From: an uncultured Spartobacteria bacterium
GTDB taxonomy: Bacteria; Verrucomicrobiota; Verrucomicrobiia; Chthoniobacterales; UBA6821
Assembly (NCBI GenBank): GCA_903868795.1
Contig: CAIPWR010000126.1
Location: 5,172 to 69,171 of the forward strand
DNA: 64,000 nucleotides
Reading direction: 5' to 3'
The translations under genes were made by a program, and so were the position numbers. The number at the start of each line of letters is the position of its first letter. Position 1 is the first letter of the stretch. A model generated the notes under the pieces. That model had not been told where the DNA came from. It worked only from the letters and a program-made list of their open reading frames with translations, and did not search any database. Of the stretch, positions 5,228 to 54,707 are shown one piece after another.

Positions 5228-5234
5228 TGCTTCG

Positions 5235-5534: not shown

Positions 5535-5590
5535 TCCGCGCCGTATTCGGGGCACATACTTTGCCGTCGGTTTTAGCTTGGGGGATTTCA

Positions 5591-5959: not shown

Positions 5960-6032
5960 CAGGATAAAAATTCTTTTAAACCACAGTCTGTTGTCCACTT
6001 GGGCGATCCGGAAAAAAGATGGCATGTAAAAC

Positions 6033-10218: not shown

Positions 10219-10294
10219 GCGCTCGTAGCTCATCGGATAGAGCAGGGGTTTTCTAAACCCTTGGTAGCAGGTTCGATTCCTGCCGGGCGCACCA
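10219..10294 (+). tRNA. tRNA-Arg (anticodon TCT), CCA encoded
   Basis: GCGCTCG-TA-GCTCATCGGATAGAGC-A-GGGGT-TTTCTAA-ACCCT-TGGTAG-CAGGTTCGATTCCTG-CCGGGCGC-ACCA gives a cloverleaf with anticodon loop TT-TCT-AA. Confidence 0.9.
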
Positions 10295-35023: not shown

Positions 35024-36121
35024 TTATCGAAGGGAGACGTTGCTCAGGAGTTGGAAGAGAGGCTCATTGATGAAGAAGTTCGACTTCCCCCTCTTCTCTT
35101 TGCGGAGGATTCCTTCGGCGACGAGCTGCTCCAGATATTTCGATGCGGTGACACGCGAGACTCCGAGATCCTTCTCCACGAACTCGATCTTCGTGTAGGG
35201 ATGGTGGAAGAGATTGTTGAGCAGATCCTGCGAATAGATTTTCTCAAGCCGCGTCCGGATCCGCTCCTTCGTCTCCTGCATGAGATCGCGGAGCGACTTC
35301 ACCAGGGCGATCTCACTCCGGGCGGTCATGGAGACGCCGCGGACCATGTAGAGACACCACTCCTTCCAGAGTCCCTTGTCCCGGGCTTCCTGCAGGAGCC
35401 TGTAGTATTCCCCCTTGGTCGTGGTGATGTAGCGGCTCAGGTAGAGCACAGGGAGATCGAGGAGTCCCTCCCTCTGCAGGATCAACAAATTCAGGATACG
35501 CCCCGTCCGACCGTTCCCATCGTAGAAGGGATGAATGCTCTCGAACTGGTGATGGGCGATTGCCATGCGAAGGATCGGGTTCAGATCATCCTCGGCATGG
35601 AGAAATGAGATGAGATTGTCCATCAGGGCTTCCACCTCGGCGGCACTTTGCGGTGGCTCATAGACAATCCGGCCTGTGGCGGGATTTTTCAGAACAGTTC
35701 CGGGGAGTTTCCGCAGGCCTGCCTTTCTCGGTTCGATCCGCGCCTGCACATCCAGCAGCGTTTTCAGCCGGATCAGACCGCTCTGACGGACATCATCGAA
35801 TCCCACTTGCAGGGCCTCGACATAGTGACGCACCTCCTTCACAGCACCGGGAGCAGCCTCCTCCTCACGGTCCGCGAAGATCTCATCGTGGCTCGTGATG
35901 ATATTCTCGATCTCGGAGCTGTCCTTGGCCTCCTGAATGGCAAGCGTACTGATCAGGATCGACTGGTTTGGCAGGGATTCGCAGAGCCCTTTTAGTTCGG
36001 CAAGATGGCGCTCCGCCTCGGCAACAGCCATCCAGACCTCTCGGCAATCGAGCATCGAGAGATCAGAGATGGGAAGAGGAGATAGCGTGGACATAGATAG
36101 AAACGGTCGAAATCTTTTCAC
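35024..36121 (-). CDS. fic: Fic family protein (AMPylase-type) with N-terminal inhibitory motif and C-terminal wHTH
   Basis: 365 aa. Catalytic loop HPFYDGNGRTGR. SSEIEN fits the (S/T)xxxE(G/N) auto-inhibition helix. C-terminal GVSRVTASKYLEQLVAEGIL. Confidence 0.9.
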   Translation of the reverse strand: MKRFRPFLSMSTLSPLPISDLSMLDCREVWMAVAEAERHLAELKGLCESLPNQSILISTLAIQEAKDSSEIENIITSHDEIFADREEEAAPGAVKEVRHYVEALQVGFDDVRQSGLIRLKTLLDVQARIEPRKAGLRKLPGTVLKNPATGRIVYEPPQSAAEVEALMDNLISFLHAEDDLNPILRMAIAHHQFESIHPFYDGNGRTGRILNLLILQREGLLDLPVLYLSRYITTTKGEYYRLLQEARDKGLWKEWCLYMVRGVSMTARSEIALVKSLRDLMQETKERIRTRLEKIYSQDLLNNLFHHPYTKIEFVEKDLGVSRVTASKYLEQLVAEGILRKEKRGKSNFFINEPLFQLLSNVSLR

Positions 36122-36557: not shown

Positions 36558-36586
36558 TTGACTTACTTTTTTGCCGTTCGTAAGAT
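36558..36586 (+). promoter_or_regulatory. sigma70-like promoter TTGACT-N17-TAAGAT upstream of the antitoxin gene
   Basis: TTGACT at 36558-36563, a 17-nt spacer, TAAGAT at 36581-36586. The ATG at 36597 lies only 10 nt after the -10 element, giving a near-leaderless transcript. The 9-bp direct repeat CTTACTTTT at 36544 and 36562 overlaps the -35. Confidence 0.35.
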
Positions 36587-36596
36587 TTATTCAAGC

Positions 36597-36830
36597 ATGA
36601 CTACTGAAACCATCACCTTCACCACCAAGGGACAGGTTGTGATCCCTGCTCCAATCCGCCGTATGTTCGGCATTGAGGAGGGTACCAAAGGGGCGGTAAC
36701 CGTGACGGAAGATGGGATCCTGATCCGCCCCATCACGAAGGCCTACATCAGCGGTCTGCGCGGATCGCTGAAGCACCTCCCCCTGATGGAAGTGCTGACC
36801 GAGGATCGCGTGCGCGAACGAGATCTCTAA
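36597..36830 (+). CDS. AbrB/MazE/SpoVT-family antitoxin (VapB-like)
   Basis: 77 aa (Met138 of track ORF 36186..36830). TKGQVVIPAPIRRMFGIEEGTKGAVTVTEDGILIRP is the swapped-hairpin SpoVT/AbrB motif. Ends 1 nt before the PIN gene. Confidence 0.75.
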   Translation: MTTETITFTTKGQVVIPAPIRRMFGIEEGTKGAVTVTEDGILIRPITKAYISGLRGSLKHLPLMEVLTEDRVRERDL

Positions 36831-36831: not shown

Positions 36832-37239
36832 ATGGCTGCCAAGGTACTCGATAGCTGGGCGCTCCTAGCGTTCTACAAAGACGAACCATGCGCTTCCGAA
36901 GTGGAAAAACTTATCCAGCAGGCTGCTGACAAAGGAAGGCCCCTCCTCCTCAGCGTGATCAACTGGGCTGAGATCCACTACTCCCTCGAGAGAGCTGGTG
37001 GCAAAGCTGTCGCTGAGAGGGTCGCCGAGCAAATCGCCGAACTTCCGATCCAAGTGGTCGGCGTTGGTGATGATATGAAGACCGCTCGAACTGCCGCTGC
37101 ATTCAAGGCAGCGAACAAGATGAGTCTTGCTGATGCCTTTGCCGCGGCCCTAGCCAAGGAGAAGAAAGCCGAACTCGTAACAGGTGATCCTGAGTTCAAG
37201 GCATTAGAAGGTCAGATCAAGATCCATTGGCTCAAGTAA
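36832..37239 (+). CDS. vapC: PIN-domain toxin (VapC-like)
   Basis: 135 aa. N-terminal VLDSWALLAF (Asp), INWAEIHY (Glu), LADAFAAALA and TGDPEF acidic positions are typical of PIN/VapC. Confidence 0.8.
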   Translation: MAAKVLDSWALLAFYKDEPCASEVEKLIQQAADKGRPLLLSVINWAEIHYSLERAGGKAVAERVAEQIAELPIQVVGVGDDMKTARTAAAFKAANKMSLADAFAAALAKEKKAELVTGDPEFKALEGQIKIHWLK

Positions 37240-37250
37240 CCGTACTTTTT

Positions 37251-39182
37251 ATGACTGCTCGATGGCATTTCAATAAGCACAGACCTTGTGATCGGATGAG
37301 GGATCCGGAAAACGAAGCGTTTTTTACGGCCGAAGGTTTGGAAAACCTGAGCGAGGCATTGGTGAGAGAGGGAATTCAAAATTCTCTGGATGCCTCGGAT
37401 TCAAACAGCGGAACAAGGAACGTTCATGTCAAAATCAGATATGTCAGCCATGGCCTACCCGGGGTCTCAAATTATTTGAAGGAGGCGTTCCTACCGGTGT
37501 TGGACAATTTTTCTAAAGGTTTAGGTGTCGACAAAAGCGTTATTGAAAAAAACCTGAGTGAAACAGGTGTGTCTTTAGTTTTTGAGGACTTTGGTACCAA
37601 GGGCCTCACTGGTGATGTGCGTGAGGTTCGGATAGAACCATCGCTCCAAAATGCCTTCTTCAGTTTCTTCCGAGCGGAGGGAAGATCAGGCAAAGATGGA
37701 GACCGTATCGGGCGATGGGGTATTGGAAAACAGGTCTTTCCCACCAGCAGCCAACTCCATGCAATCCTTGGGGTTACTGTCAGGAGAGAAAGTCCCGAAA
37801 AAGTTCTAATGGGGAGCGCCGTGGTTCGGAGCCATTGCGTCGATGACCAAGATTATCAGCCAGATGCGTGGTTCGGTATCAGGGGTGATGAGCAGTCTGC
37901 AGTCATGCCTTTAGAACATACCGATGGCGTTGAAACTTTCTGTGGCATCTTTGGTTTGGAGAGGGGCTCGCGCGCAGGGCTTTCTGTTTTGATACCCGCC
38001 GTTGATCCTAGAATTGAGGTCAAAGATCTTATCAACGGTGTTCTCAAGAGCTTTTTTTGGACCGTTCTCAAAGGTGAACTATCTGTGTCGATTGTCGGAC
38101 CAGATGGAGAGATCAAGGAAATCAATAATTCCACAATTTCCGATCATCTCCTGAGTCTTGAGCCGAAAGATGCAGGTATCATTAATTGTGCAGTTTGGGC
38201 GGCAAACATGGAGGCAGAGAAGATGGTTATACTTGAAGGTAGTGAAGCCAGGATCCCGAAATGGCCGGAATCCAGAGACAAACTTCTGACAGAGGGAAAA
38301 ATCGAGGAGATCCGATCTTCGCTAGAGAGTTTGGGCAGGGTTGGAGTACGTGTGCCGGTTCTTGTTAGGGTGAAAGGCAGTGAAGAAGAAACTAAAGCGC
38401 ACTTTGACGTTTTTTTGGAAAGGACCAAGGAACCGGAATCCAGAACAGTTTTTCTAAGAGACGGGATAGTCATCACAGATGTCAGGTCTCCCAGCATCGC
38501 CGGGAGTAGGAGCCTAGTTGTTGCAAGCCACGAAAAAATCGCGCGCCTCCTAGGCGACTCAGAAGGTGTAAACCATACTCAATGGCAAAAAGACTCCCCA
38601 AAGTTTCACAACAAATACGTCTACGGACCCGACACCATAACATTTGTCCAGAGAAGTGCTTATGAAATCTCGAGAAGCGTTCAAGGGGCTGATTCAAGCG
38701 GGGACCCCACATTGCTAAGGGATTATTTCTCGATACCAGAAGAATCCGGAGAAAAAGAAAGAGGGAAGAAAGAAAGGCCTGGAATTAAGCCTGCTCTACC
38801 GATTCCACCCCCACCTCCACCGCGGAAATCTTGGTACACAGTCCAGCAAGATGCCCGAGGAGGCGGATTTGTTATTGGTGCTGGAGACGAGGATTCCACA
38901 AAAATAACTTTCCCTTTTTCTCTGCGTATAAAACTCGGTTACGCCGTCCGAAGCGGAAATCCGATCAAAAAATGGAGTCCTGCCGACTTTGAAGTGAACA
39001 AAGATCCAATATGCTCAAATCCTGATAACAAAGGTATTGAGATAGAGGCCGTTGACGGGAACGAGCTTACAATAAAGATACTTTCACACGATTTTACATT
39101 TGGTCTTCAAGGTTTTGATAAACACCGGGATCTTGAGGTCAGGGTCAATAAGCTGACTGATAACAATGAAGAGGACGTTTAA
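37251..39182 (+). CDS. divergent GHKL (Bergerat-fold, MORC/HATPase_c_3-like) ATPase with large uncharacterised C-terminal region; cassette ORF1
   Basis: Track ORF 37227..39182 (TTG start); ATG at 37251 preferred. In 651-aa numbering: N-box EALVREGIQNSLDA (E48, N52, D55), G1-like VFEDFGTKGLTG (D121, G123, G126), G2-like GRWGIGKQVF (162-171). Poly-Pro linker PIPPPPPP (525-532) and a final domain of about 117 aa. Confidence 0.6.
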   Translation: MTARWHFNKHRPCDRMRDPENEAFFTAEGLENLSEALVREGIQNSLDASDSNSGTRNVHVKIRYVSHGLPGVSNYLKEAFLPVLDNFSKGLGVDKSVIEKNLSETGVSLVFEDFGTKGLTGDVREVRIEPSLQNAFFSFFRAEGRSGKDGDRIGRWGIGKQVFPTSSQLHAILGVTVRRESPEKVLMGSAVVRSHCVDDQDYQPDAWFGIRGDEQSAVMPLEHTDGVETFCGIFGLERGSRAGLSVLIPAVDPRIEVKDLINGVLKSFFWTVLKGELSVSIVGPDGEIKEINNSTISDHLLSLEPKDAGIINCAVWAANMEAEKMVILEGSEARIPKWPESRDKLLTEGKIEEIRSSLESLGRVGVRVPVLVRVKGSEEETKAHFDVFLERTKEPESRTVFLRDGIVITDVRSPSIAGSRSLVVASHEKIARLLGDSEGVNHTQWQKDSPKFHNKYVYGPDTITFVQRSAYEISRSVQGADSSGDPTLLRDYFSIPEESGEKERGKKERPGIKPALPIPPPPPPRKSWYTVQQDARGGGFVIGAGDEDSTKITFPFSLRIKLGYAVRSGNPIKKWSPADFEVNKDPICSNPDNKGIEIEAVDGNELTIKILSHDFTFGLQGFDKHRDLEVRVNKLTDNNEEDV

Positions 39183-39912
39183 TTTTACAGGGCGTAAGAA
39201 TATCAACAGGGAAGATGTCGCTGTGACACTTGTTCGTACCCCAACAGCACTGTCATTCAACGCCAATCCCAATTTGGAGGGCTATAGTTTTCCTGGGGAT
39301 GCGGATATATGGATTGAAATATACCGCGGAAACCTCATTAAACAATGCTATTGGGGAAAGGTTTCGCAGCCTGAAGCTCCGCTAGATCGCGATCTCAGCG
39401 TATTTGAAGTCCCCGACGGAATTCAATTCAGGTTGCGCGTCGTGAGTCTTGCTGATGGCAATCTGCTAAAGATGCTTGGCGAGGCCGATCACGTTACGTC
39501 AAAGGATACAGAGGATAATCCAGACAATAGAAAGCCATTGATCACACCGGTTCCAGATGATCTGGGGCAACAGCTTTGGAAGATCGATTTCATCGCAGAT
39601 CCGCCGGTTCTTCTGATTAACAACCAAGCCAAAGATGGCTGGAAGGACATAGCCCGATCCAGTGTGTTTATAGCTTTGGTGTATCCTCAAGTCATGAGAA
39701 GCATGTTGTCCAAAATCCTGATTGAGGATGAATGGGACGAAGATGGAGCAGATTGGCAGGATAATTGGATGCACTTTGCCAAGCGAAACTACACCGCCAA
39801 AGTTTTACCCGCAGTCTCCGATCATGAAGGAAGAGAGCGATGGATCGAGGATGCAGTGGATGCATTTGCATCCATAAAGAATCTCAAAGACCTATGGGAC
39901 GCGAACAGCTAG
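39166..39912 (+). CDS. hypothetical protein, cassette ORF2 (no recognisable domain)
   Basis: 248-aa ORF whose ATG lies 17 nt inside ORF1 (translational coupling). Acidic, Trp-rich C-terminal half EDEWDEDGADWQDNWMHF. Lower-GC codon usage, like its neighbours. Confidence 0.6.
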   Translation: MKRTFNFTGRKNINREDVAVTLVRTPTALSFNANPNLEGYSFPGDADIWIEIYRGNLIKQCYWGKVSQPEAPLDRDLSVFEVPDGIQFRLRVVSLADGNLLKMLGEADHVTSKDTEDNPDNRKPLITPVPDDLGQQLWKIDFIADPPVLLINNQAKDGWKDIARSSVFIALVYPQVMRSMLSKILIEDEWDEDGADWQDNWMHFAKRNYTAKVLPAVSDHEGRERWIEDAVDAFASIKNLKDLWDANS

Positions 39913-39918: not shown

Positions 39919-40641
39919 ATGAATATTCGCCGTTTTAACGATAAAGGATTGGCAGCATTCAGGAATTACTTGGATGAGGTGAAATCTGATCCGACCTTGT
40001 CTGTACCAACCAATCTTCTAGAAGACGACGAATGCACTGAAATTATTTCCTCCAAGGTGGAATTATCGGCTCGTTTACTGCCCACAAGAATGGAGGCAGG
40101 TACTTTTCTATTAGAGATTGTAGAAAAAATTGGGCTTACTACTCCCGAAAAAGATGTGGGTTTTTGGTCGTGGATGGCGCTGGTCTTTTTTGAATCTCTT
40201 TGCCCTGTGGATCGGGCTGGAAAACGTAAAATGGGTGATAAGTCCAGATGTATACTTGAGCTTCGTCACGATCGCTTCTACAGGCATCTACTTTTGGGCC
40301 CATTCCTGATTGTTCGGGCGCATAAAGATAATCCTGATCGGGCGGTTGTCCTTTTGAGTAATCCGCCAAGTACACCCGGAGATATTTCCGAGCAGTTTTC
40401 TTCAAGATTGGAGCAGATAACCAACAAGGGCCTCGTTGAGCTTCTTTCAAGACTCTACTTTGATCCGATACACAAAACGATTAGACGAGGCGCTGCTGGA
40501 AAAGGAGGGGGTTCCGTGAGACGATTATCTATGCTAATCAATCAACTAGATCTCACCTACTACCTCTATGGCATGACAGGCGAGGCCTTGGCTCAGCTTT
40601 TGCCCAAAGAATTCGACAAGTTTCGGAAAGCTGCAGACTAA
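39919..40641 (+). CDS. hypothetical protein, cassette ORF3 (no recognisable domain)
   Basis: 240-aa ORF starting 6 nt after ORF2 and ending 6 nt before the methyltransferase. No motif I can place. Confidence 0.6.
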   Translation: MNIRRFNDKGLAAFRNYLDEVKSDPTLSVPTNLLEDDECTEIISSKVELSARLLPTRMEAGTFLLEIVEKIGLTTPEKDVGFWSWMALVFFESLCPVDRAGKRKMGDKSRCILELRHDRFYRHLLLGPFLIVRAHKDNPDRAVVLLSNPPSTPGDISEQFSSRLEQITNKGLVELLSRLYFDPIHKTIRRGAAGKGGGSVRRLSMLINQLDLTYYLYGMTGEALAQLLPKEFDKFRKAAD

Positions 40642-40647: not shown

Positions 40648-42132
40648 GTGAGTTTCCTTGTAATTGATCTGTTCGCTGGGCCTGGAGGGCTTGGGGAAGG
40701 TTTTGATTCCCTTTCGGATGAGAAGGGTAATGCCGCATTCAAAATAGCCCTTTCCATTGAATGTGATGATTTTGCCCACCGAACCCTTGAGCTAAGAAGT
40801 TTCTACAGACAATTCCACAAGAAGGATGTTCCAGGGGACTACTACCGTTACCTGAGAGGTGAGATTTCACGGGAAATACTTTTTTTGAAAAATCCTCGCG
40901 AGGCAGATCAAGCTATGGCTATAGCTGCAAAGATTCGCCTAGGGGTCGCGGAAGCACATGAGGTTCACAAAAGAATAAGCAGCGCTCTAGCTGCACGTGG
41001 AAAAAACCCTTGGGTACTTATAGGAGGGCCTCCATGCCAGGCTTATTCACTTGTGGGAAGATCGCGAAGAAGAGGCGAATGCCGAGCAAAGTTCGAAAGC
41101 GATGAAAAGCATCTCCTCTATAAGCAATATTTACAAATCATCCATGATCATCGTCCGGCAGTCTTTGTGATGGAGAATGTGAAAGGGATCCTTTCGGCCA
41201 AATTGGGAGGAGACAGGATTTTTTCTCGTATCTGTAACGATCTTGCTGCAGAGGGATATGATCTTTATGGCTTAAATGGAAAAGAACCCAGATCCACAGA
41301 GCTATTTGGAAACGGAGGCTGGGATCCTTCTATGTTTGTAGTTCGATCAGAGGATTATGGTATTCCTCAAGCAAGACACAGAGTTTTCATCGTAGGGCTC
41401 AGCCGTGAATACTTTCCCGGGAAAGTTTCACCATCCGCTGTTCAACTTTTGGCTTCCGGAAGACAAGTGACCGTTGAGGAAACAATCCGAGATATGCCGG
41501 AAATATGGAGCGGTCTCTCATCCGATCGAGGGGATACAGTAGGCTGGTTAAAGGCGCGTGATCGGGGCCTTAAAAAGGCCGGATATTCGAGGGTGGCATC
41601 CACAATGATGCCTGAGGCGGGCCACGGAGGACGGTTTATTGCGGGTAAGACGCCTGTATCCTTCAAACGCGAATGGTTTAATGATGCACGTATAAAAGGG
41701 GTTATTCAGCACGAGTCACGCACGCATATGGACGGCGATGTTTCGCGTTATGCGTTTGCTGCTGCTGTTGCACCCCAGTATGGATGCAGCCCCTCGATCC
41801 ATGATTTCCCAAAAGCCCTGCTCCCCGCTCATAAAAATGTTCATTCTGACGAAGGTGAAACCATCCCATTTGCTGATCGCTTCAGGGTTCAAATGTTCGG
41901 GGGCCCTTCCACAACGATCACGAGCCACATCTCCAAAGACGGGCACTACTACATTCATCCTGATCCGGAACAGGCTAGGAGCCTTACCGTTAGAGAGGCT
42001 GCACGATTGCAGACGTTTCCAGACAATTACTTTTTTGAGGGTCCAAGGACTCAGCAATACCACCAAGTAGGTAATGCTGTGCCGCCTTTGTTGGCGCATC
42101 AGATAGCAGCCATCGTTCATCGGTTGCTCTAG
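40648..42132 (+). CDS. dcm: DNA (cytosine-5)-methyltransferase
   Basis: 494 aa, GTG start. Motif I DLFAGPGGLGEGF, motif IV GGPPCQAYS (Cys130), motif VI FVMENVKG, motif VIII IPQARHRVFIVG, motif IX TVREAARLQTFPD, motif X QVGNAVPPLLA. Confidence 0.92.
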   Translation: MSFLVIDLFAGPGGLGEGFDSLSDEKGNAAFKIALSIECDDFAHRTLELRSFYRQFHKKDVPGDYYRYLRGEISREILFLKNPREADQAMAIAAKIRLGVAEAHEVHKRISSALAARGKNPWVLIGGPPCQAYSLVGRSRRRGECRAKFESDEKHLLYKQYLQIIHDHRPAVFVMENVKGILSAKLGGDRIFSRICNDLAAEGYDLYGLNGKEPRSTELFGNGGWDPSMFVVRSEDYGIPQARHRVFIVGLSREYFPGKVSPSAVQLLASGRQVTVEETIRDMPEIWSGLSSDRGDTVGWLKARDRGLKKAGYSRVASTMMPEAGHGGRFIAGKTPVSFKREWFNDARIKGVIQHESRTHMDGDVSRYAFAAAVAPQYGCSPSIHDFPKALLPAHKNVHSDEGETIPFADRFRVQMFGGPSTTITSHISKDGHYYIHPDPEQARSLTVREAARLQTFPDNYFFEGPRTQQYHQVGNAVPPLLAHQIAAIVHRLL

Positions 42133-45343: not shown

Positions 45344-45484
45344 AATATGGAACTCAGGAACTCAGGAAAACCTGATGAAAATTAGCGGTTTGAAAGAAGC
45401 TGCACTCGCAGACAAGGGTCTGAAATGGTGGGTAATCTAAACGTGTCATGTCCCCTTGAATTCTCAATTCCTGAGTTCCATATT
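45344..45484. repeat. 141-bp intergenic module bounded by the same 17-bp terminal inverted repeat AATATGGAACTCAGGAA (copy 2 of 2)
   Basis: Left AATATGGAACTCAGGAA (45344-45360, followed by a second CTCAGGAA). Right TTCCTGAGTTCCATATT (45468-45484). These are perfect reverse complements. The module abuts the tadA stop codon. Confidence 0.5.
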
Positions 45485-46005
45485 CATTCAGCCTGTCCGC
45501 GTCGTTCGGCGAAAAAGCTTTTGAGCAGCTGACCGCTTTCCTGACCGAGCACGCCCCCTGTGATTTCACACCGGTGGCTGAGTCCATCCATCTGAAGGAT
45601 ATTGATGCTGCCGCCGGCTGCCCCTCCCCTCGGATCATGGCATCCAAAGATGACTCTCCTGACCCGGGAATTCACCAGGGCTCCCGCACACATTGGGCAG
45701 GGCTCCTTGGTCACATAGAGATCGCATTCGTTGAGGCGCCAGTCGCCGATCGAGTTCTCGGCCTGGGTGATCGCGAGCATCTCGGCATGGGCTGTCGCGT
45801 CCTTGAGCGTCTCCACCAGATTTGAGGCGCGTGCAATGATCTTCCCCTCGCGGACGACCACGGCACCAATCGGCACCTCCTCGGCCTCGTAGGCCTTCAT
45901 GGCCTGGCGAAGCGCCTGACCCATGAAGTAGTCGTCACTGGTCAGATCAATGATCGGATCTTCCAACGGCCCCTCTCCACCCGAGTCGTTGAGGATGATT
46001 CTCAT
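45484..46005 (-). CDS. tadA: tRNA adenosine(34) deaminase
   Basis: 173 aa. EVPIGAVVV...HAEMLAI...EPCPMCAGAL are CDA zinc motifs. Confidence 0.9.
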   Translation of the reverse strand: MRIILNDSGGEGPLEDPIIDLTSDDYFMGQALRQAMKAYEAEEVPIGAVVVREGKIIARASNLVETLKDATAHAEMLAITQAENSIGDWRLNECDLYVTKEPCPMCAGALVNSRVRRVIFGCHDPRGGAAGGSINILQMDGLSHRCEITGGVLGQESGQLLKSFFAERRGQAE

Positions 46006-46143
46006 GCTGTGCCGAAGTGGAGGCAGGGTAGGGGTTAAAAAGTTAGAACGTTGAAGTGTTACAAAGATTGATGCGGGGCCCCATACGCGGAATGGATCCT
46101 CTTTTCACCTTTTAACTTTCTAACGATTTTAACCCGGATGGTC

Positions 46144-46806
46144 CTACCCCCGCAATGCGCGGATCTCCGCAGCGCGGTCGGCGGCCTTGAAGACCGAGGT
46201 GCCCGCCACCATGACATCGGCACCAGCCTCTCGGCAGAGAGCGGCGGTCTCCACATCGATCCCTCCATCCACCTCGATCAGGAAACCTAGTCCCAGATCC
46301 GTGCGGATCCGATCGGCATCGCGGATCTTGCCGAGCATGTCGTTCATGAAGGGCTGGCCGCCGAATCCCGGCTCGACCGTCATGATCAGGAGAATATCAA
46401 AGCGGCCGAAGAGCTCTCGGGCCTGATCGAGAGGGGTGCCCGGCTTGATGGAGAGGCCCGCTTTCTTGCCGGCGGCACGCACGGTGTCCAGCGTGACGCC
46501 CGCATCGTGGTTGGCCTCGAGGTGCGAGGTTACTGACGCAACTCCGGGAACGCTCATGAATTGCGCGATGTAGCGGTCGGGACGCTGGATCATGAGATGG
46601 ACATCGAGCGGGAGGCCCGTGTGGCGTCCGGCAGCTTTCACGATCGGCTCACCGAAGGAAATGTTCGGGACGAAGTCCCCATCCATCACGTCGCAATGGA
46701 TCCAATCGGCGCCCGCGTCCGTCACGCTCTTGACCTCATCCCCCAGGCGACCGAAGTCACAGGCGAGAATTGAGGGGGCAATGATGGAAGGGCGCTGAGC
46801 TGGCAT
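46144..46806 (-). CDS. rpe: ribulose-phosphate 3-epimerase
   Basis: ORF 46144..46851 trimmed to Met16. IAPSILACDFGRLGDEV...HCDVMDGDFVPNISFG...DVHLM...VEPGFGGQ. Confidence 0.9.
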   Translation of the reverse strand: MPAQRPSIIAPSILACDFGRLGDEVKSVTDAGADWIHCDVMDGDFVPNISFGEPIVKAAGRHTGLPLDVHLMIQRPDRYIAQFMSVPGVASVTSHLEANHDAGVTLDTVRAAGKKAGLSIKPGTPLDQARELFGRFDILLIMTVEPGFGGQPFMNDMLGKIRDADRIRTDLGLGFLIEVDGGIDVETAALCREAGADVMVAGTSVFKAADRAAEIRALRG

Positions 46807-46828
46807 GCGAATCGTCCGGAGTGGGTGC

Positions 46829-48217
46829 TTAAATATGGATGGCGTGACCAAGGGCGGCCTCGGTCGCCTCGAAGACCGCCTCGCTCAATGTCGGGTGCGC
46901 GTGGATCGTGGAGGCGATGTCGTCATAGGTCGCCTCGAGGGTGATGGCGAGTCCCATCTCTGCGATCATCTCGGTGGCGTCCGCTCCGATGATGTGGGCT
47001 CCGACGATCTCACCATGCGGCTCGTTGAAGAGGAGCTTCACGAAGCCGTCGGTCTCGCCGACCGCCTGGGCCTTGCCACTGGCCTGGAATGGGAACTTGC
47101 CGATCTTGACCTTGAGGCCCTTTTCCTTGGCTGCGCGCTCGGTGAGTCCGACACTCGCAACCTGCGGCTGGCAGTAGGTGCAACCGGGGAAGGTACGCTT
47201 GCGGGCGGGTGTGCGTTTTCCGAACATTCCCTCGACGGCCTGGACAGCCTCCCAGCTGGCGACGTGCGCGAGCCATGGGGGTCCGATGATATCTCCCGCC
47301 GCGTAGACGCCGGGAATGCTGGTCTCGTAGCGGTCGTTGACGGCGATATATCCTCGGTCGTCGAGCTTGATCGCGGCCGCACCTCCGGGAAGGAGTGGCG
47401 AAACGCCGATCGCCACGAGCGCGACGTCTGCGGTGAGGGTTTCGTTGGCTCCACCGGAGACTGTGATCTTCACCCCCTCTTTCGTGGCTTCAGCCTTCTC
47501 GACCTTGGTGCCGGTGAGGATGCGGATGCCCTGCTTGACGAGCGACTTCTCTAGCGTGACGGAGACCTCCGTGTCCTCGACGGGAAGGATGTTGGGCATC
47601 ATCTCGACGATGGTTACCTTCGTGCCGAAGGCATTGAAGAAGTAGGCGAACTCGACACCGATCGCACCGGCACCGATGACGATGATCTCCTTGGGCTGCT
47701 TGGCGATGGCGAGTGCGTGGCGGCTGCCGATGACGCTGGTTCCGTTGAACGCAAAGCCTGGCATCTCGCGGGTGACGACGCCGGTGGCGATGAGAATCTT
47801 CGGCGCCGTGAGGGTCTGGTCCTTTCCATCTGCTCCGCGAACCTCAACAGTTCCTGCCTTGGGCGCGCTCGCGTCGCCCTTGATATAATCGACCTTGTTC
47901 TTCTTGAAGAGGAACTCGATTCCGCCGGCGAGCTTATCCGCGACCTTGCGGGAACGCCCGATGACCTTGTCCCAGTCGTACTTGAGCCCGGAAACCTCGA
48001 GCCCGAAGTCAGCGGCGTGGTGACCGATCAGGGAATAGAGTTCGGCATTCTTGAGCAGGGCCTTGGTCGGAATGCAGCCCCAGTTCAGGCACGTGCCTCC
48101 GGCGCGTTCCTTCTCGACAACAGCGACGCGCTTGCCGAGTTGGGCGGCGCGGATCGCGCCAACATATCCGGCGGGGCCGCCGCCGATGACGATGAGGTCG
48201 TAGGGTGTCGTGGACAT
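46829..48217 (-). CDS. lpdA: dihydrolipoyl dehydrogenase
   Basis: ORF 46829..48256 trimmed to Met14. YDLIVIGGGPAGY, redox-active GGTCLNWGCIPTK, C-terminal HAHPTLSE. Confidence 0.9.
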   Translation of the reverse strand: MSTTPYDLIVIGGGPAGYVGAIRAAQLGKRVAVVEKERAGGTCLNWGCIPTKALLKNAELYSLIGHHAADFGLEVSGLKYDWDKVIGRSRKVADKLAGGIEFLFKKNKVDYIKGDASAPKAGTVEVRGADGKDQTLTAPKILIATGVVTREMPGFAFNGTSVIGSRHALAIAKQPKEIIVIGAGAIGVEFAYFFNAFGTKVTIVEMMPNILPVEDTEVSVTLEKSLVKQGIRILTGTKVEKAEATKEGVKITVSGGANETLTADVALVAIGVSPLLPGGAAAIKLDDRGYIAVNDRYETSIPGVYAAGDIIGPPWLAHVASWEAVQAVEGMFGKRTPARKRTFPGCTYCQPQVASVGLTERAAKEKGLKVKIGKFPFQASGKAQAVGETDGFVKLLFNEPHGEIVGAHIIGADATEMIAEMGLAITLEATYDDIASTIHAHPTLSEAVFEATEAALGHAIHI

Positions 48218-48330
48218 AAGTAAAAAGAGATTCTTTGCGGAGGGGCCGTGCGTCAAAAAGATTCTCGTTGATCCTTTGCGTTAGCAGATTTCCCAAGAGA
48301 CTTTTTTCTGCCCTAGGTTATCGTATCTTC

Positions 48331-48669
48331 ATGGAAATAACCTTGTCCTTGATCGGTGATATTCCGATCTTCCATCTCAATGGCAGGCTCGACATGACGT
48401 CGAGCCCACTTTTGGAAGAGCGCCTCAAACCCCTACTAATAGTGCTGGGACAGAAAATGGTCTTCGACTGCTCGGATCTCTCCTACATCAGCAGCGCTGG
48501 GCTCCGGGTCTTTCTTTCGACCATGCGTCATCTCTCTGCACAAGGTGGGGGTGTCGGTTTTGCGCGACTCAGTCCCCCTGTGGGAGATCTTTTCCGCTTG
48601 GCGGGCCTTGAGGATCTCTTCCTAATCACACCAACCGTCGAGGAAGCAGCCACAAAACTCCAAAGCTGA
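48331..48669 (+). CDS. STAS-domain anti-sigma-factor antagonist
   Basis: ORF 48235..48669 trimmed to Met33. DLSYISSAGLRVFL is the SpoIIAA-type phospho-Ser region. Confidence 0.7.
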   Translation: MEITLSLIGDIPIFHLNGRLDMTSSPLLEERLKPLLIVLGQKMVFDCSDLSYISSAGLRVFLSTMRHLSAQGGGVGFARLSPPVGDLFRLAGLEDLFLITPTVEEAATKLQS

Positions 48670-50553
48670 TCAGTCCTTTTGGAACTGCTTTGCCACTTCT
48701 GATTCCTTACGGATCCAGACAGAGAGCACCGAAATATCTGCCGGGGTGATACCGCTAATCCGCGACGCTTGTCCCAGTGTCTCCGGGGCAAACGCCGCAA
48801 GTTTCTGGCGGGCCTCCAATCTCAGGCTGGGAATGTTGTCGTAGGCAAGCGTCTTGGGAATTTGGGTTTCCTCCTGATGACGCTGCCGTTCGATTTGATC
48901 CTCCTCCCGCCGAAGGTACCCCTCATACTTCAGGTCAATTTCCATCAGGCTCCAGACTTCATCCGTATAGCGTCCTAAAAGATCCGAGGGAAGCTTCTCG
49001 GGTGTGTTTTCGGAACGCTTCAGCCACTGGGCGAGGGGGATTCCCTCATGATGGAGAGAAAGGGCCTCCTTACGCAGGGAAGAAAGGACCGCTATCTTCT
49101 TCATGAAGGCCTGACGTCGGTAATCACAGGCCATTCCTATCTTTAAAGCCCTGCCGGTCAATCTGATATCACAATTATCTTGGCGGAGGCGCAAGCGGTA
49201 TTCCGCGCGGCTGGTGAACATCCGATACGGCTCTGGAGTTCCCCTGGTCACGAGGTCATCGATCATAACCCCTATGTACGCTTCTTCTCGTCCGAGAAGT
49301 AAGGCCTCTTTTTTCTGCACTTTCAATGCTGCATTGATACCAGCCATCAGTCCTTGTGCTGCGGCCTCTTCATATCCCGATGTCCCATTGATCTGACCAG
49401 CAAAGTAGAGCCCTTCGATCTTCTTGGTCTCTAGGGTAGAATGGAGCTGGTGGGGAGGGCAATAATCGTACTCGACCGCATATCCAGGCCTAAGAATCTC
49501 TGCCTTCTCAAGTGCCGGGATCGACCTGATGAACTCGTACTGAATTTCGTAGGGGAGGCTCGTAGAGACCCCGTTCACATAGACCTCGCCAGTATGGCGT
49601 CCCTCCGGTTCCAGGAAAATCTGGTGGCGGGTCTTGTCGGCAAACTTCACCACCTTATCCTCAATGGATGGGCAATACCGTGGTCCCACCCCCTCAATCG
49701 CTCCCGCATAAAGAGGTGATTGGTGGAGGTTGGATCGGATGATCTCGTGGGTCTGTTCTGTGGTGTAGGTGATCCAACAGGGGATTTGTTCCACATGGAA
49801 CATTCCATCACTAAAATAATTCAGCGTGTGGAGGTCATCCTTTGAGCGGCTGATACTCTCGGGAATGTAGGAGAACCTTGGTGGAGGCGTCTCGCCCTCC
49901 TGTATCTCGCACTTTCCAAAATCGATTGATTTGGCCAAAAGTCGGCATGGTGTGCCTGTCTTGAATCTCCCAACCTCAAAGCCTAGTTCCTTAAGGTGGT
50001 CGCTTAGCGTAGAGATGGTATCTCCCATTCGACCTCCCGCCTGGGTTTGCATTCCCACATGAAGAAGCCCCCTCATGAAGGTCCCTGTCGTGACAACGAC
50101 CGAACTGCTTAAGAAACGGAGCCCGATATTTGTTTCCACTCCTGTCACGTGATCCCCCTCCACTATCAGTCTGGTAATGTTGGCTTGTTTGAGAGAGAGG
50201 TTCGGGAGATCTTCTAAGATAGCCTTCATGCGAAATTGATAGGCCTTCTTATCACATTGGGCGCGCGGAGCACGGACACTAGGGCCCTTGGATGCATTCA
50301 GCATGCGAAACTGAATCCCGGTGGCATCTGTATTCAATCCCATCAATCCGCCCAGCGCATCAATCTCTCGAACCATGTGGCCCTTGGCCAACCCCCCGAT
50401 GGCAGGATTACAAGACATCTGTCCGATGGTATCGGCGTTCTGGGTCAAAAGGAGTGTTTTAGCCCCAAGACGCGCGCTTGCATGGGCCGCTTCAATACCA
50501 GCGTGGCCTGCACCAATAACCACGACATCGAATTGTTCTGGATAGGTATACAT
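48670..50553 (-). CDS. mnmG: tRNA uridine-5-carboxymethylaminomethyl synthesis enzyme MnmG (GidA)
   Basis: 627 aa. [16 protein letters not shown]...[16 protein letters not shown]...[11 protein letters not shown]. Confidence 0.95.
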
Positions 50554-50955
50554 TTTCTATGTTCCACATGGAACTTTCATATAAGCTATTATATTAAAGG
50601 TACTTGTGTTTTATTTTTAGATATTCTTTGTTTGAGAACTCTTTTGGGAACTCTTTGTGGATGAATGTCTCTTTCTGGTGCTTCTTTGTTCCATGAAACA
50701 GTATTTTCTCCCATCCACCACACCAATGAATTCCTCATTCACACTCGATGGTCATGCCATAGACCCAGTATGGAGAATGATTTGCAGAAGATTCATTCTG
50801 ATTGTTCACACAGTTATTATTAAGAAGAAATTGGCCCAAAGATTATTTTATCAATCCATTCTGTGAACAAACCGAATCTGCGCGAAGTTCTTCAATAAAA
50901 GGATCTCGAAGAATTCTTTCAGTGTCGGCTTTAAGCAAATAGAAAAGAACGTCAC
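50554..50955. other. AT-rich divergent intergenic region with DnaA-box-like 9-mers (candidate oriC or relic)
   Basis: 402 bp between divergent mnmG and an ompA-like gene. 9-mers against TTATCCACA: TCATCCACA (rc of 50656-64, 8/9), TTGTTCACA (50802-10) and its inverted copy (50862-70), TGTTCCACA (50560-68), each 7/9. AT-rich run at 50575-50640. Confidence 0.3.
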
Positions 50956-51933
50956 ATGGGAAGCGTATCGTTAAAAAGACCGCGGAGCGTCACAAGATCT
51001 CTTTTCGTGTGGATCTTCGCAGCCTGCTTCCTCAGCTCCCTGTTGGTGCATTTGTTTTTTCTAGGTGAATCCAAGTCATGGATCCTCCCGGGGTTCTCCG
51101 CAGCCAGTTATGATACGATCGTGCCGAGAACATTTCGAATGAAACGGGTGGAGATCGATCCAAAAACGTTGACTGATACCGAACCTGTCATTGAGAAAAA
51201 GGAACAGCATGTGCCTGTAGTGATTTCCCAAGATCACCCTGAGAACAATGCTCAGTCCCTAGTGCAGGGTCAGTCGCACGTCATGCAACGACCCAAAGAA
51301 ATACTCCCCGATGTGGGAATAGATAAAATGGTTGGAAAACTTCCAGGAGTGGAAAGTCTCGCTACCGGCGCGCCATCAACGATGCCAAGCCTGCCTGAAA
51401 CGTTGCTTGAACCACCATCCAAAGCGGATAGGACGACGCTGCTGCAAAAAAAAAATGCGAGAGAAGATGGGGTTTCGGGAGCTCTGGAAAAAGCCGGGGA
51501 ATCAAGCGATGTGGGATCATCAACGAATTTCAGCAATATCGATGATCTGTTGGCAGGAACAGCGATGCTCTCCCCGACAACGGCACCCATTCTGATGCCG
51601 ACAGATCTGCTCTTTGAATATGACTCTGACGCGTTACGGAAGGAAGCAGCGCTCTCTCTATCAAAACTCGGTGATCTCATCCGAAGGAATGGACAGGCAT
51701 CTTTTCGAATTGAAGGACATACCGATTCTTTCGGAAGTGAAGACTACAATAACCAACTCAGCCTTAGGCGTGCTGAAGCAGTGAAAACCTGGCTGATCCA
51801 GAACGCAGGCTTGGATCCACGGCAGATCACCACAGCGGGACTTGGAAAGAAACATCTCCTGGCCCCCTCTACTGGTAGTGTTGCGGAACAACAACTCAAC
51901 AGGCGCGTCGAAATTGTCATCACCACGCACTAA
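50956..51933 (+). CDS. OmpA/MotB-domain protein with N-terminal membrane anchor
   Basis: 325 aa. TM helix LFVWIFAACFLSSLLVHLFFL. C-terminal OmpA_C block FEYDSDAL...IEGHTDSFGSEDYNNQLSLRRAEAV...NRRVEIV. Confidence 0.75.
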   Translation: MGSVSLKRPRSVTRSLFVWIFAACFLSSLLVHLFFLGESKSWILPGFSAASYDTIVPRTFRMKRVEIDPKTLTDTEPVIEKKEQHVPVVISQDHPENNAQSLVQGQSHVMQRPKEILPDVGIDKMVGKLPGVESLATGAPSTMPSLPETLLEPPSKADRTTLLQKKNAREDGVSGALEKAGESSDVGSSTNFSNIDDLLAGTAMLSPTTAPILMPTDLLFEYDSDALRKEAALSLSKLGDLIRRNGQASFRIEGHTDSFGSEDYNNQLSLRRAEAVKTWLIQNAGLDPRQITTAGLGKKHLLAPSTGSVAEQQLNRRVEIVITTH

Positions 51934-51944
51934 CGGAGAACCCC

Positions 51945-54707
51945 ATGGAAGGAATCATCCCGCTCTCTGAACATCGAGCCCGCATTCAGAAGGAAGTTGC
52001 GCGTAAGCTTTCGGATGTTCTCGTGGGAGAAAAGGAGTTGCCCATTGCTAAACTCCAGTCCTTTCGCAAGAAGGAAGAGCACAGGCTGAAGATTTGGCAC
52101 CGCGCTGGGGGAGGAGGAAAAGAGATTGCGGGAAGAAGAACAGAAATCGTCGATATCCTCGTGAAGGAGATTTTCCAATTTGCCACGGTCAAAGAACGTG
52201 GAGAAAAAGAAATTCCAGGATTTCTCGTAAGTGCTTTTGGGGGCTATGGACGAAGGGAACTCAATCCCTTTAGCGACGTGGACATCACGTTCCTTCATGA
52301 GGGGAATAAACCTACTGAGGGCATGGAAAGGATCATCTCGACGTGCCTCATGGCATTGTGGGATCTCGGTTTTAAGGTGGGACATGCCACGCGGTCGGTA
52401 CAGGGCGCCCTAAGTCAGGCGAACGCCGATATGATGACCAAGACGGCAATGCTGGAAAGCCGCCTACTTGCTGGAGACAAAAAACTTTTTCAAGAGTTCC
52501 GGAGCCAATTCGAGGTCACCTGCGTCAAGGGGAAGGAGAAGGATTATATTGCCTTTCGAATCGATAATCTTAAGGAACTGCGGGCAAAATACGGATCGAG
52601 CGTCTTCATGCAGGAACCGAATATCAAGTCGGGTTGCGGTGGTCTACGCGACTATCAGAACCTTCTCTGGACAGGGATGTTCCATTCGGGAGCCTATACG
52701 GTAAAGAAACTTGTGGAGGAAAAAATCCTCCGCGAGAGGGAGAGAAAGTCCCTGGAAGAAGCGCATGATTTTCTTCTGCGGGTTCGCACAGAGATGCACT
52801 ATCAAACTGGGCGGGCTTCCGAGCAACTTACCCTCCAGCTCCAAGGGAAGGTCGCCACGGCTTTGGGCTATCCCGAGAAGAACATCCTTCGTCGCTGCGA
52901 GGCATTCATGCGCGACTATTACCGCCACACCCGCGCGATTCACCTCATCAGCACCCTGGCCCTCGGAAGAATTCGCGAGCAGCAGGGAAGCCGCCTGACG
53001 CTGCTGAATAAAATCCTCGGGCGACAGGAGAGCGTGGACGAGATGGTCATCAGAAACGGGGAGATATTTCCCAAGACCCGGGATATTTTCAACAAAGAGC
53101 CGGCGCGCCTCATGCGGGCTTTCCAGATAGCCCAGACACGCAATGTGAATTTCTCCGCAGAGTTGGAGGATCTCGTGAAGAGAAGGCTGAACCTCGTCGA
53201 CCGAACCTTTCAGTATAACAAGGAAAACTGTACGGTCTTTCTTTCCATCCTCTCAAGGAAAGGGGAGGTCGGGCGCATCCTGCGACTCATGCACAACCTG
53301 GGGTTCTTGGGCAAATACATGCCGGAGTTTGAACCACTCACCTGCTTGGTTCAGCATGAGTTTTTCCATCGGTACACAGCCGATGAGCACACGCTGCTCT
53401 GCATCGACAAAATAGATGCACTCCTATTGACAACGGAGCAAAAGCTATCCCGGTACCGCAAGCTCTTCCGTAACTTCGAGGATCCCGCGATCCTCTACCT
53501 TGCAATGCTTCTTCATGACACGGGCAAGGCTGCAAACACGAAGCATCATGAGGAGGCCAGTGCGCTGGCAGCCCAACGGGTAGCCAGAAGGCTTCAGCTC
53601 AATCCAGCGAGGAAGAAGATGCTCATCGCGCTCGTCGACAATCACGGTGAGATGAGCGGAACCGCACGCAGCAGGAATGTTGAGGATCCGGCGACAGTGG
53701 AGGAATTCGCGGAAATCATTCGGGATCCCGTAACCCTCGATGCACTCATGGTGATCACACTGGCTGACGGCATGGGCACGAGCGACGATGGATGGAGTGA
53801 TTGGAAGGAGCAGATGGTCTGGTCACTGTATCACCAGACACGCGGATTACTCACAAACAGTATCGGATTCCGAGAGGAGCAGCAACGGCGCCGGGAAGAA
53901 CTCCGTCGGAAGGTCACCGGCGCGTTGCCTGATTTGTTTGAAGAGGAAACGGCAGCGCATATGGAACGAATGCCGGATCGTTATTTTCACACGAAGGATG
54001 CAGCGGAAATATACCGCCACATTAGGTTATTTCATCGATTCTTCGAGGAGGGGATGATCAGTGAAGGACCCAATCTCTCCACCGTAATCGAATGGGTGGA
54101 CCATCCCGAGGCAGGATATGCCGAAGTTCTCGTTTGTGGATGGGATCGGGAGCGCCTTCTGGAGAGGATTGCCGCTGCGTTCCTGGAAGCCGGGATTAAT
54201 GTGCTCGGAGCCGACATCTATACACGCAGTGACAACCTGGCCCTCGACATTTTCAAGGTCACCAACAATCGCAGCGAACCGCTGCCGAGAGAGCGGGAGC
54301 GCAAGGTATTCGAGCAAAAACTCCGCGAGTCCCTCATGGCACCCGGCCATAGGCTTGTCCCTGCACCAAAAGAAAAACCAGGCATTCGCGCGGACAAGAC
54401 ATCCGTTAGTGAAGAGGAAGAACTGCCCGTGTGGGTTGTGGTGAACAATAACGCGCACCCATCGTGCACCATCCTCGAAGTCCAGGCACCCGATCGTATG
54501 GGGCTTCTCTATCATTTGTTGAGGGCCATCTCCCACGGCGGCATCACGATCGAGGCGGCACGCATCGCCACGGAGCAAAAGGCCGCACTGGATGTTTTTT
54601 ACCTCCGTACCAAGGAGGGCGGAAAGCTCGAGGATCACCATCAACTCATGCGGCTCGAGCGTCGGCTCCGAGCTGCAGCGGCACGCGCCGGAAAAACCAA
54701 CGGATGA
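51945..54707 (+). CDS. glnD: [protein-PII] uridylyltransferase / uridylyl-removing enzyme
   Basis: 920 aa. NTase GGYGRRELNPFSDVDI, HD domain HRYTADEHTL...LLHDTGK, two C-terminal ACT-like segments. Confidence 0.9.
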   Translation: MEGIIPLSEHRARIQKEVARKLSDVLVGEKELPIAKLQSFRKKEEHRLKIWHRAGGGGKEIAGRRTEIVDILVKEIFQFATVKERGEKEIPGFLVSAFGGYGRRELNPFSDVDITFLHEGNKPTEGMERIISTCLMALWDLGFKVGHATRSVQGALSQANADMMTKTAMLESRLLAGDKKLFQEFRSQFEVTCVKGKEKDYIAFRIDNLKELRAKYGSSVFMQEPNIKSGCGGLRDYQNLLWTGMFHSGAYTVKKLVEEKILRERERKSLEEAHDFLLRVRTEMHYQTGRASEQLTLQLQGKVATALGYPEKNILRRCEAFMRDYYRHTRAIHLISTLALGRIREQQGSRLTLLNKILGRQESVDEMVIRNGEIFPKTRDIFNKEPARLMRAFQIAQTRNVNFSAELEDLVKRRLNLVDRTFQYNKENCTVFLSILSRKGEVGRILRLMHNLGFLGKYMPEFEPLTCLVQHEFFHRYTADEHTLLCIDKIDALLLTTEQKLSRYRKLFRNFEDPAILYLAMLLHDTGKAANTKHHEEASALAAQRVARRLQLNPARKKMLIALVDNHGEMSGTARSRNVEDPATVEEFAEIIRDPVTLDALMVITLADGMGTSDDGWSDWKEQMVWSLYHQTRGLLTNSIGFREEQQRRREELRRKVTGALPDLFEEETAAHMERMPDRYFHTKDAAEIYRHIRLFHRFFEEGMISEGPNLSTVIEWVDHPEAGYAEVLVCGWDRERLLERIAAAFLEAGINVLGADIYTRSDNLALDIFKVTNNRSEPLPRERERKVFEQKLRESLMAPGHRLVPAPKEKPGIRADKTSVSEEEELPVWVVVNNNAHPSCTILEVQAPDRMGLLYHLLRAISHGGITIEAARIATEQKAALDVFYLRTKEGGKLEDHHQLMRLERRLRAAAARAGKTNG

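Follow-up and report, generated by a model that had tools for sequence, protein, structure and literature searches.

Since 2008, a restriction-like role in bacteria has been predicted for GHKL ATPases of the MutL/MORC type; experimentally, this role is almost unexplored. The paraMORC proteins, described as GHKL+S5 families encoded near Dcm, Vsr, helicases and nucleases, were proposed to loop DNA in restriction-modification; paraMORC2 carries a conserved ExxxH motif ending the S5 domain and is found chiefly among cyanobacteria and Gram-positives (Iyer et al. 2008, PMC2292703). For a fusion of a GHKL ATPase with Shedu (paraMORC3, VcSduA), anti-phage activity requiring the catalytic Glu was demonstrated experimentally (PMC12137116). 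PADLOC further lists the three-gene system PDC-M33, with proteins A (~627 aa), B (~289 aa) and C (~247 aa, DUF6339) (Payne et al., bioRxiv 10.1101/2024.01.29.577857). The 145 PDC systems of that work are predicted candidates, obtained from their embedding within BREX, DISARM and type I restriction-modification loci (“guilt by embedding”), and no papers came up when the literature was searched for PDC-M33 and DUF6339. In this study, a 64,000-nucleotide stretch of contig CAIPWR010000126.1 from an uncultured Spartobacteria bacterium (assembly GCA_903868795.1), hereafter the window, was analysed around open reading frame 1 (ORF1), which is followed by ORF2, ORF3 and a gene for a C5 DNA cytosine methyltransferase (Dcm; ORF4). 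Judging from sequence and predicted structure, the ORF1 system appears to be a divergent form of the known paraMORC/PDC-M33-type GHKL triads linked to cytosine methylases.

An earlier note, made from the sequence of the window alone, had read a divergent but complete set of GHKL ATP-binding motifs at the N-terminus of ORF1, and the three motif strings lie exactly where it placed them (Table 1). Residues are given below in the numbering of the longest reading frame (651 aa) or in that of the public gene call (628 aa, Met at 37296), the latter being the 651-aa number minus 23. Conservation was assessed over 60 family members with 29–48% identity. Across this set, the key residues of the motifs were invariant, which goes beyond a chance resemblance. 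In the N-box, R47, E48, Q51 and N52 (651-aa numbering) were invariant and D55 was kept in at least 90% of relatives; the motif falls on the first long helix (18–33, 628-aa numbering) of the AlphaFold2 (AF2) model. E48 and N52 would be the catalytic Glu and the Mg-binding Asn that define this motif. E120, D121, G126 and L127 (651-aa numbering) of G1 were invariant; in the model, G1 comes immediately after strand 92–99 (628-aa numbering). As the note had pointed out, G1 is a DxGxxG variant with one residue more than the usual DxGxG, its D and second G being invariant. The PDC-M33A-like plasmid relatives discussed below show DxNTxG at this site and retain D, T, G and L. In G2, located before a short model helix, G162, G165, G167 and K168 (651-aa numbering) did not vary.

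Two further elements were assigned with less certainty. The segment 113–139 (628-aa numbering), where the predicted local distance difference test score (pLDDT) of the model is below 50, is the probable ATP lid by its position between G1 and G2. A G-x-S string in place of the usual G-T is a candidate for motif IV, judged by the motif order and by its location on model strand 228–233. The full list of invariant columns (628-aa numbering) comprises R24, E25, Q28, N29, E97, D98, G103, L104, K133, G139, G142, G144, K145, S152, R223, G228, S230, R388, E423, H427, F478, Y549, D564 and G606.

The motif spacing had been described as that of MutL, MORC and Hsp90. This holds for G1 to G2, where a distance of ~41 residues is typical, but not for N-box to G1, where ~70 residues exceed the 25 of Escherichia coli MutL and the 42 of yeast Hsp82. 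In the AF2 model, this longer stretch contains two additional helices.

The fold of ORF1 was recognised by structure alone, since Pfam, NCBIfam and PDB sequence searches were empty. The profile search that the earlier note had proposed was run and gave no match for ORF1 in Pfam, HATPase_c and HATPase_c_3 included, nor in NCBIfam or PHROG; no PDB chain was found either by phmmer or by the family profile. The structural comparison that it had also proposed recovered the Bergerat fold. A Foldseek search of the AF2 model (pLDDT 73.9, predicted template modelling score (pTM) 0.65) against PDB returned 41 matches at E ≤ 1e-3, every one of them a GHKL ATPase. Topo VI-B was among the neighbours with an E-value of 2.3e-8, along with Hsc82/Hsp90/TRAP1, GyrB, ParE, SMCHD1, MORC2, MORC3 and Topo II.

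Profile–sequence comparisons gave signals of lower strength. With hhalign, the ORF1 profile aligned to MutL-N and Hsp82-N at non-significant E-values of 0.065 and 0.11, respectively, and over the N-box only. The register of this alignment pairs E25/N29/D32 (628-aa numbering) with E29/N33/D36 of MutL and E33/N37/D40 of Hsp82. A broader ORF1 profile reached a marginal E 0.004 with MutL. The same profile gave a marginal E 0.0011 with the HATPase_c_3 domain of relative P0312, with G2 in register with RGRFGTGK of that domain. This domain provides the sole Pfam match among the 60 relatives (HATPase_c_3, 1.5e-14) and lies in an extra fused N-terminal part of P0312. In this 959-aa protein (locus L034, 68–2947, on a 3-kb metagenome contig), a canonical HATPase_c_3 stands ahead of an ORF1-like protein, making a tandem GHKL. 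By its sequence, the tandem could be a real fusion, or two adjacent genes that were joined because a stop codon was lost or the contig was misassembled.

Taking motifs and model together, we hold with high confidence that the N-terminus of ORF1 is a divergent GHKL/Bergerat ATPase whose catalytic residues are predicted to be intact. That the GHKL-like strings are a chance resemblance, or belong to a degenerate pseudo-ATPase scaffold, is very improbable. Such an explanation would account for the lack of Pfam, NCBIfam and PDB sequence matches, for the extra residue in G1 and for the long insertion between N-box and G1. However, the catalytic and nucleotide-contact residues are all invariant across a very large family, the significant structural neighbours are GHKL ATPases without exception, and the motifs occupy the expected secondary-structure elements of the model.

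Downstream of the ATPase domain, the ~450 aa that the earlier note had left as unknown sequence can largely be subdivided. About 185 aa (approximately residues 236–420 in 628-aa numbering) probably form a transducer (S5-like) domain; in the model, this region consists of strands followed by a long helix, an order compatible with such a domain. The assignment is indicated by the scores of structural matches, because two-domain GHKL+transducer targets (Foldseek E 1e-8 to 1e-6 over 450–590 columns) outscored N-domain-only targets such as Hsp90 and Grp94 fragments (E ~1e-3). The region holds the invariant R388; domains of this type supply a basic residue to the active site. The absence of a recognisable S5 fold, as the note had put it, is thus true of sequence searches but not of structural ones, where the matches are two-domain GHKL+transducer proteins.

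The remaining ~200 aa comprise the ExxxH segment, the linker and the C-terminal domain. The ExxxH motif, just after the transducer domain, is invariant in the 60 members and in the PDC-M33A-like plasmid relatives, and its segment is the best-conserved part of ORF1, with ~80% identity. The least conserved segment is the linker, where pLDDT falls below 50 at residues 466–499 (628-aa numbering). A hexa-proline run ahead of a final domain of ~117 aa had been noted correctly, although its coordinates are 38805–38822 instead of 38799–38822. The C-terminal domain was predicted with a pLDDT of ~81–91 and seven strands; Y549, D564 and G606 are invariant and N589, D608, R611 and D612 are kept in at least 90% of members (all in 628-aa numbering). 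Dimerisation, partner docking and catalysis are candidate roles for this domain. According to the model, the overall layout of ORF1, in which a flexible, proline-rich linker joins a GHKL+transducer part to a small domain at the C-terminus, would be that of MutL.

The longest reading frame of ORF1 (37227..39182, +) starts with TTG 37227, which would add 8 residues. ATG 37251 is probably the true start, because the N-terminal MxxxWxF pattern encoded from it is kept in at least 90% of relatives. The public gene call (P0001, 628 aa) begins at 37296, which is too late.

ORF1 is homologous to PDC-M33A, as judged by profile comparison. The PDC-M33A model matched ORF1 partially in hmmscan (2.3e-17, model positions 29–288 of 627). 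Between the ORF1 family and PDC-M33A-like plasmid proteins, hhalign gave a probability of 100% and an E-value of 1.2e-41 over 429 columns. This match spans residues 1–482, including the N-box, G1, G2, the conserved Arg and ExxxH, and leaves the C-terminal domain outside.

The plasmid proteins were reached by tblastn, which found N-terminal matches of 24–32% identity on plasmids of Rhizobium, haloarchaea, Enterococcus, Synechococcus and Arthrobacter and in a Clostridium innocuum phage. At these distant loci, a protein of ~630 aa is followed by one of ~290–356 aa and then by a DUF6339 protein of ~250–280 aa. PADLOC recognised the three as PDC-M33A (4.8e-47), PDC-M33B (2.3e-11) and PDC-M33C (1.3e-4; Pfam DUF6339 1.5e-5). 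Their neighbours include AIPR, a DUF4420/MzaD-like PD-(D/E)XK protein, dcm with a type II restriction endonuclease (and vsr), dcm alone, Shedu and a phage DNA methylase; a C5 methylase lies near 6 of the 10 distant plasmid or phage triads. On the Halorussus plasmid (L042, 1–931), a second ORF1-like GHKL match was seen on the opposite strand, ~4 kb from the first triad. In the Clostridium innocuum phage (L040, NatCom_9291, 2137–5986), a PDC-M33-like arrangement stands by the integrase, with a DNA methyltransferase ~1 kb downstream. The position next to a phage integrase indicates that the system is also carried by a temperate phage.

The homology could not be extended to the partner genes. ORF2, ORF3 and their relatives had no PADLOC or Pfam match to PDC-M33B, PDC-M33C or DUF6339, and DUF6339 was not found in a Pfam scan of 30 ORF3 relatives. 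In comparisons with profiles of 7 and of 59 sequences, ORF2 had no significant link to PDC-M33B (hhalign E 0.013, probability 3%), nor had ORF3 to PDC-M33C/DUF6339 (E 0.05, probabilities 1–3%, even with the 59-sequence DUF6339 profile). Agreement is limited to position, size and a short D..W..L motif. The earlier note had described such a GHKL module as one to be expected for the motor or sensor of a new system. The protein is indeed the large subunit of a conserved multi-gene system, but the system is not quite new, given the PDC-M33A homologue and the paraMORC precedent of 2008.

The ORF1 family is large, with 2139 clusters at 50% identity (E ≤ 1e-3). Gene order was compared in 27 genome loci. 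All 21 of them in which the region past ORF1 is retained show ORF1, ORF2 and ORF3 in this order, down to 27–33% identity, with ORF2 relatives 27–49% identical across loci. Hosts of the triad are mostly metagenome-assembled genomes of Verrucomicrobiota; Binatia, Limnocylindrales, Natronospirales, Gemmatimonas, Planctomycetota and Nitrospiraceae are also represented. Three loci look degraded: in L021, ORF1 breaks off near residue 438 and continues into part of a Dcm gene, ORF2 and ORF3 being absent, and in L026 and L029 the match covers the ORF1 ends only.

In all close-clade loci with sufficient flank, a Dcm gene adjoins the triad on the same strand at a distance of a few to ~100 nt. Two types of Dcm occur, one downstream (the type of the window, ~49% identical) and one upstream (unrelated, 27–30% identical). 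Similarity among the triad proteins does not follow the type of methylase beside them. In locus L001, which has a downstream Dcm, ORF1 is 75–76% identical to ORF1 of L013, L015 and L020, which have the unrelated upstream Dcm, versus 66–72% to loci of its own Dcm type; for ORF2 of L001 the respective values are 82% and 68–71%. A search of the triad domains for a target-recognition domain, that is, for co-variation with methylase type, found none. The methylase thus behaves, by sequence comparison, as an exchangeable module. A sequence-matched restriction enzyme is hard to reconcile with these data, because triads 75–82% identical carry unrelated methylases on opposite sides.

The swaps also bear on a methylation-independent explanation, in which the triad is a defence or abortive-infection sensor, Dcm-Vsr is a separate co-located or hitch-hiking orphan, and the effector comes from variable neighbours, here the VapC PIN RNase. 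Methylase type and position change between near-identical triads, as this explanation would allow, and distant triads occur without a methylase beside AIPR, DUF4420, NOV_C, a TIR-like/LRV protein or Shedu. VapBC, moreover, is co-oriented 11 nt upstream of ORF1 and linked in 13 of ~24 loci. Against this, Dcm is kept in every close-clade locus with enough flank despite the swaps, which points to selection for the linkage, and a C5 methylase accompanies more than half of the distant plasmid and phage triads. VapBC is absent from about half of the loci and has its own antitoxin. We therefore regard the methylation-independent sensor as unlikely.

Vsr lies beside Dcm or the triad in most close-clade relatives. 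MutL of E. coli stimulates Vsr, and together with the MutL-like architecture of ORF1 this would fit a DNA-repair or epigenetic accessory of Dcm-Vsr, acting like MutL to recruit Vsr to T:G mismatches arising from 5-methylcytosine deamination or to stimulate it there. However, tblastn detected no Vsr in the 64-kb window, and distant triads are found without Dcm or Vsr in defence islands, plasmids and a prophage. ORF1 has no MutL-specific Pfam domain and no MutS partner, and the distribution, patchy and marked by horizontal transfer, is of the kind usual for conflict systems. A repair function is accordingly improbable in our assessment.

The reading we favour, with moderate confidence, is that ORF1 clamps DNA in an ATP-driven manner, as part of a restriction-like module for defence that also comprises ORF2, ORF3 and the methylase. 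It builds on the fold, motifs, triad, methylase linkage and PDC-M33A homology found in the analysis; from these we infer that the module acts in defence, that ORF1 clamps DNA, that methylation marks self and which component is the effector. The defence role is proposed because of the PDC-M33A homology, the defence-gene neighbours of distant triads and the VcSduA and paraMORC precedents. The module would be carried on a horizontally acquired island, with ORF1–ORF3 co-transcribed with the C5 methylase and, here, with the upstream VapBC. The three proteins would form one machine, with ORF1 as its large subunit. While the methylase would mark host DNA, ORF1 would dimerise upon ATP binding and clamp DNA, as MutL, MORC and Topo VI-B do. 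Unmarked DNA would then be inactivated via ORF3, the ExxxH site or the ORF1 C-terminal domain, and the co-transcribed VapBC may act as an addiction or abortive-infection module.

Several points weigh against this reading. No nuclease or other effector domain was found in ORF1, ORF2 or ORF3 by profile, PDB and Foldseek searches. The triad does not co-evolve with methylase specificity, triads of 75–82% identity being combined with methylases of 27–30% identity. Distant triads without an adjacent methylase were found at L024, L025 and L030 (30% identity) and also at L035 and L036. In the Pfam scan of the 60 relatives, the region homologous to ORF1 had no match at all, and hhalign comparisons with MutL, Hsp82 or the HATPase_c_3 domain reached just E 0.065 down to 0.001. 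Confidence in the AF2 model is low for the lid, for the loop with ExxxH and for the linker. PDC-M33 itself has candidate status only (10.1101/2024.01.29.577857). On the supporting side, at two of the loci lacking an immediately adjacent methylase, L024 and L030, the triad adjoins candidate defence genes (NOV_C/PDC-S36, HNH, PLD-helicase and NERD-UvrD).

A more far-reaching proposal, which we offer tentatively, is that the triad represents a new class of methylation-linked immunity, in which a MutL/MORC-like clamp and two partners of unrecognised fold would employ a C5 methylase, itself interchangeable, as a general means of marking self. Methylation would be read through the methylase or independently of sequence, not by a sequence-matched nuclease, and unmarked DNA would be silenced or destroyed by an effector of new fold (ORF3, or ExxxH plus the C-terminal domain). 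If true, this would be a prokaryotic counterpart of MORC-type epigenetic control. The swapped methylases raise the question of how self is told from non-self without matching methylase sequence specificity, and the answer would also be relevant to how MORC-type chromatin regulators of eukaryotes arose. The family concerned, with two partner proteins always alongside, is invisible to Pfam and NCBIfam.

The partner genes were characterised by sequence and by model. ORF2 had no Pfam, NCBIfam, PADLOC, PHROG or PDB match and is probably an adaptor, given its few polar invariants. ORF3 has many conserved polar residues (D79, H123, R141, N169, R202, Q209 and E231), which make it a candidate for the role of effector or reader. 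Scans of ORF3 against Pfam, NCBIfam and PHROG, and PDB sequence and profile searches, gave nothing meaningful. Its AF2 model is mostly helical (pLDDT 88.4, pTM 0.86) and had no structural neighbour, the best Foldseek E-values being 0.89 in PDB and 2.5 in BFVD; the predicted fold is apparently one without a recognised relative. ORF4, besides its Pfam domain, matched TIGR00675 (5e-43) and PADLOC DrmMII (1.5e-96).

Upstream of ORF1 lies a VapBC-like pair. The 214-aa antitoxin reading frame from 36186 is probably over-extended, with the start at ATG 36598, because the MazE domain is C-terminal, homologues are 81–97 aa long and a sigma-70-like site stands just before this ATG. That single site (36558–36586) is weak evidence, as fewer sites were found than chance expects, and the promoter and terminator scan of the region was uninformative. 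A PIN homologue of 41–63% identity is adjacent in 13 of ~24 distinct close-clade loci, on either methylase side; in L003 it overlaps the Dcm start.

The GC-content of ORF1-ORF2-ORF3-methylase is 0.45–0.49 compared to 0.54–0.62 for VapBC, Fic and SecA; VapBC alone, at 0.54–0.58, is unlike the four-gene block. From this contrast, the four genes are an acquired island among housekeeping genes. No tRNA or flanking direct repeat was found at the island ends; tRNA-Gly(CCC) (6033–6103) and tRNA-Arg(TCT) (10219–10294) are far from it. A second low-GC dip (50–52 kb, within the stretch 45484–57292) was ruled out as an island, as it holds housekeeping reading frames. Those in 45484–57292 encode a TadA-like deaminase, Lpd, MnmG/GidA, an OmpA-family protein, GlnD and MacB/FtsX.

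Table 1. Coordinates of ORF1, its motifs and domains, and the neighbouring genes in the window.
Feature	Coordinates	Strand	Description
ORF1	37251..39182	+	GHKL + transducer ATPase (predicted), proline-rich linker, beta-rich C-terminal domain; 643 aa from the probable start ATG 37251
Motif I (N-box) SEALVREGIQNSLDA	37350..37394	+	aa 42-56; ExxxNxxD with E48, N52, D55 (651-aa numbering)
Motif II (G1) VFEDFGTKGLTG	37578..37613	+	aa 118-129; variant DxGxxG, D121-F-G-T-K-G126
Probable ATP lid	37632..37712	+	between G1 and G2; K156 (K133 in 628-aa numbering) invariant
Motif III (G2) GRWGIGKQVF	37710..37739	+	aa 162-171; GxxGxGK
Candidate motif IV G251-L-S253	37977..37985	+	G-x-S replacing usual G-T; G228, S230 (628-aa numbering) invariant
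Probable transducer (S5-like) domain	38001..38555	+	about residues 236-420 (628-aa numbering), with invariant R388; boundaries approximate
ExxxH motif	38562..38576	+	E446, H450 (E423, H427 in 628-aa numbering); just after transducer domain
Disordered proline-rich linker	38691..38825	+	PPPPPP at 38805-38822 (aa 527-532)
C-terminal beta-rich domain	38826..39179	+	~117 aa, seven predicted strands, pLDDT ~81-91
ORF2	39166..39912	+	248 aa; 17-nt overlap with the end of ORF1
ORF3	39919..40641	+	240 aa; begins 6 nt past ORF2
C5 DNA cytosine methyltransferase (ORF4)	40648..42132	+	begins 6 nt past ORF3; Pfam DNA_methylase (PF00145) 1.1e-47
AbrB/MazE-type antitoxin (VapB-like)	36598..36830	+	probable start ATG 36598; Pfam MazE_antitoxin 6e-8, residues 148-185 of the 214-aa ORF
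PIN-domain toxin (VapC-like)	36832..37239	+	Pfam PIN 5.5e-16; stop 11 nt before ORF1 ATG
Fic/SoFic-type adenylyltransferase	35024..36121	-	Fic_N, Fic, SoFic-like_C; directly upstream of VapBC, opposite strand

Compared with known systems, the locus shares a DNA methyltransferase (ORF4) with restriction-modification systems and differs from them in that no endonuclease domain was found and the triad does not co-vary with methylase type. With VcSduA, it has in common a GHKL ATPase, which there controls anti-phage activity. VcSduA, however, consists of one polypeptide whose C-terminal part is a DUF4263 PD-(D/E)xK nuclease, whereas ORF1 lacks this nuclease and is accompanied by two separate proteins and a methylase. 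The HEF_HK/Response_reg_2 family described as “paraMORC-like” (PMC8011034) was rejected as a relative, having a different architecture.

MORC, SMCHD1, Topo VI-B, Hsp90 and GyrB resemble ORF1 in the Bergerat fold and probably in the transducer (Foldseek E 2e-8 to 1e-3), and ATP-driven dimerisation would be expected of all. They differ in that sequence identity is 6–13% and ORF1 has no topoisomerase, CW or coiled-coil parts. The MORC S5 motif GhXhhpXXRhl (PMC2292703) was not matched by ORF1, where GIVITDVR has Arg at +7 and not at +8; the family consensus at this site is REGIxISxV, without a conserved Arg.

MutL is similar in its GHKL and, probably, transducer domains, proline-rich linker, small C-terminal domain, N-box register and link to methyl-directed processes and Vsr. 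In contrast to MutL, ORF1 had no DNA_mis_repair or MutL_C match in Pfam and NCBIfam, has another C-terminal domain and no MutS partner, and its family is horizontally mobile and patchily distributed.

PDC-M33 differs from the locus in that ORF2 and ORF3 do not match PDC-M33B or PDC-M33C and in that the ORF1 C-terminal domain lies outside the PDC-M33A alignment. It agrees with the locus in the three-gene layout, the similar protein sizes and the frequent presence of a C5 methylase nearby. From paraMORC2, compared by its published description, the locus is set apart by the absence of the published superfamily 2 (SF2) helicase and restriction endonuclease (RE)-fold nuclease contexts and by the mainly verrucomicrobial distribution of the ORF1 clade. 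It shares with paraMORC2 a GHKL module with intact ATP motifs and a probable S5-like domain, the Dcm/Vsr context and the ExxxH motif, and the PDC-M33A-like relatives occur like paraMORC2 in cyanobacteria and Gram-positives.

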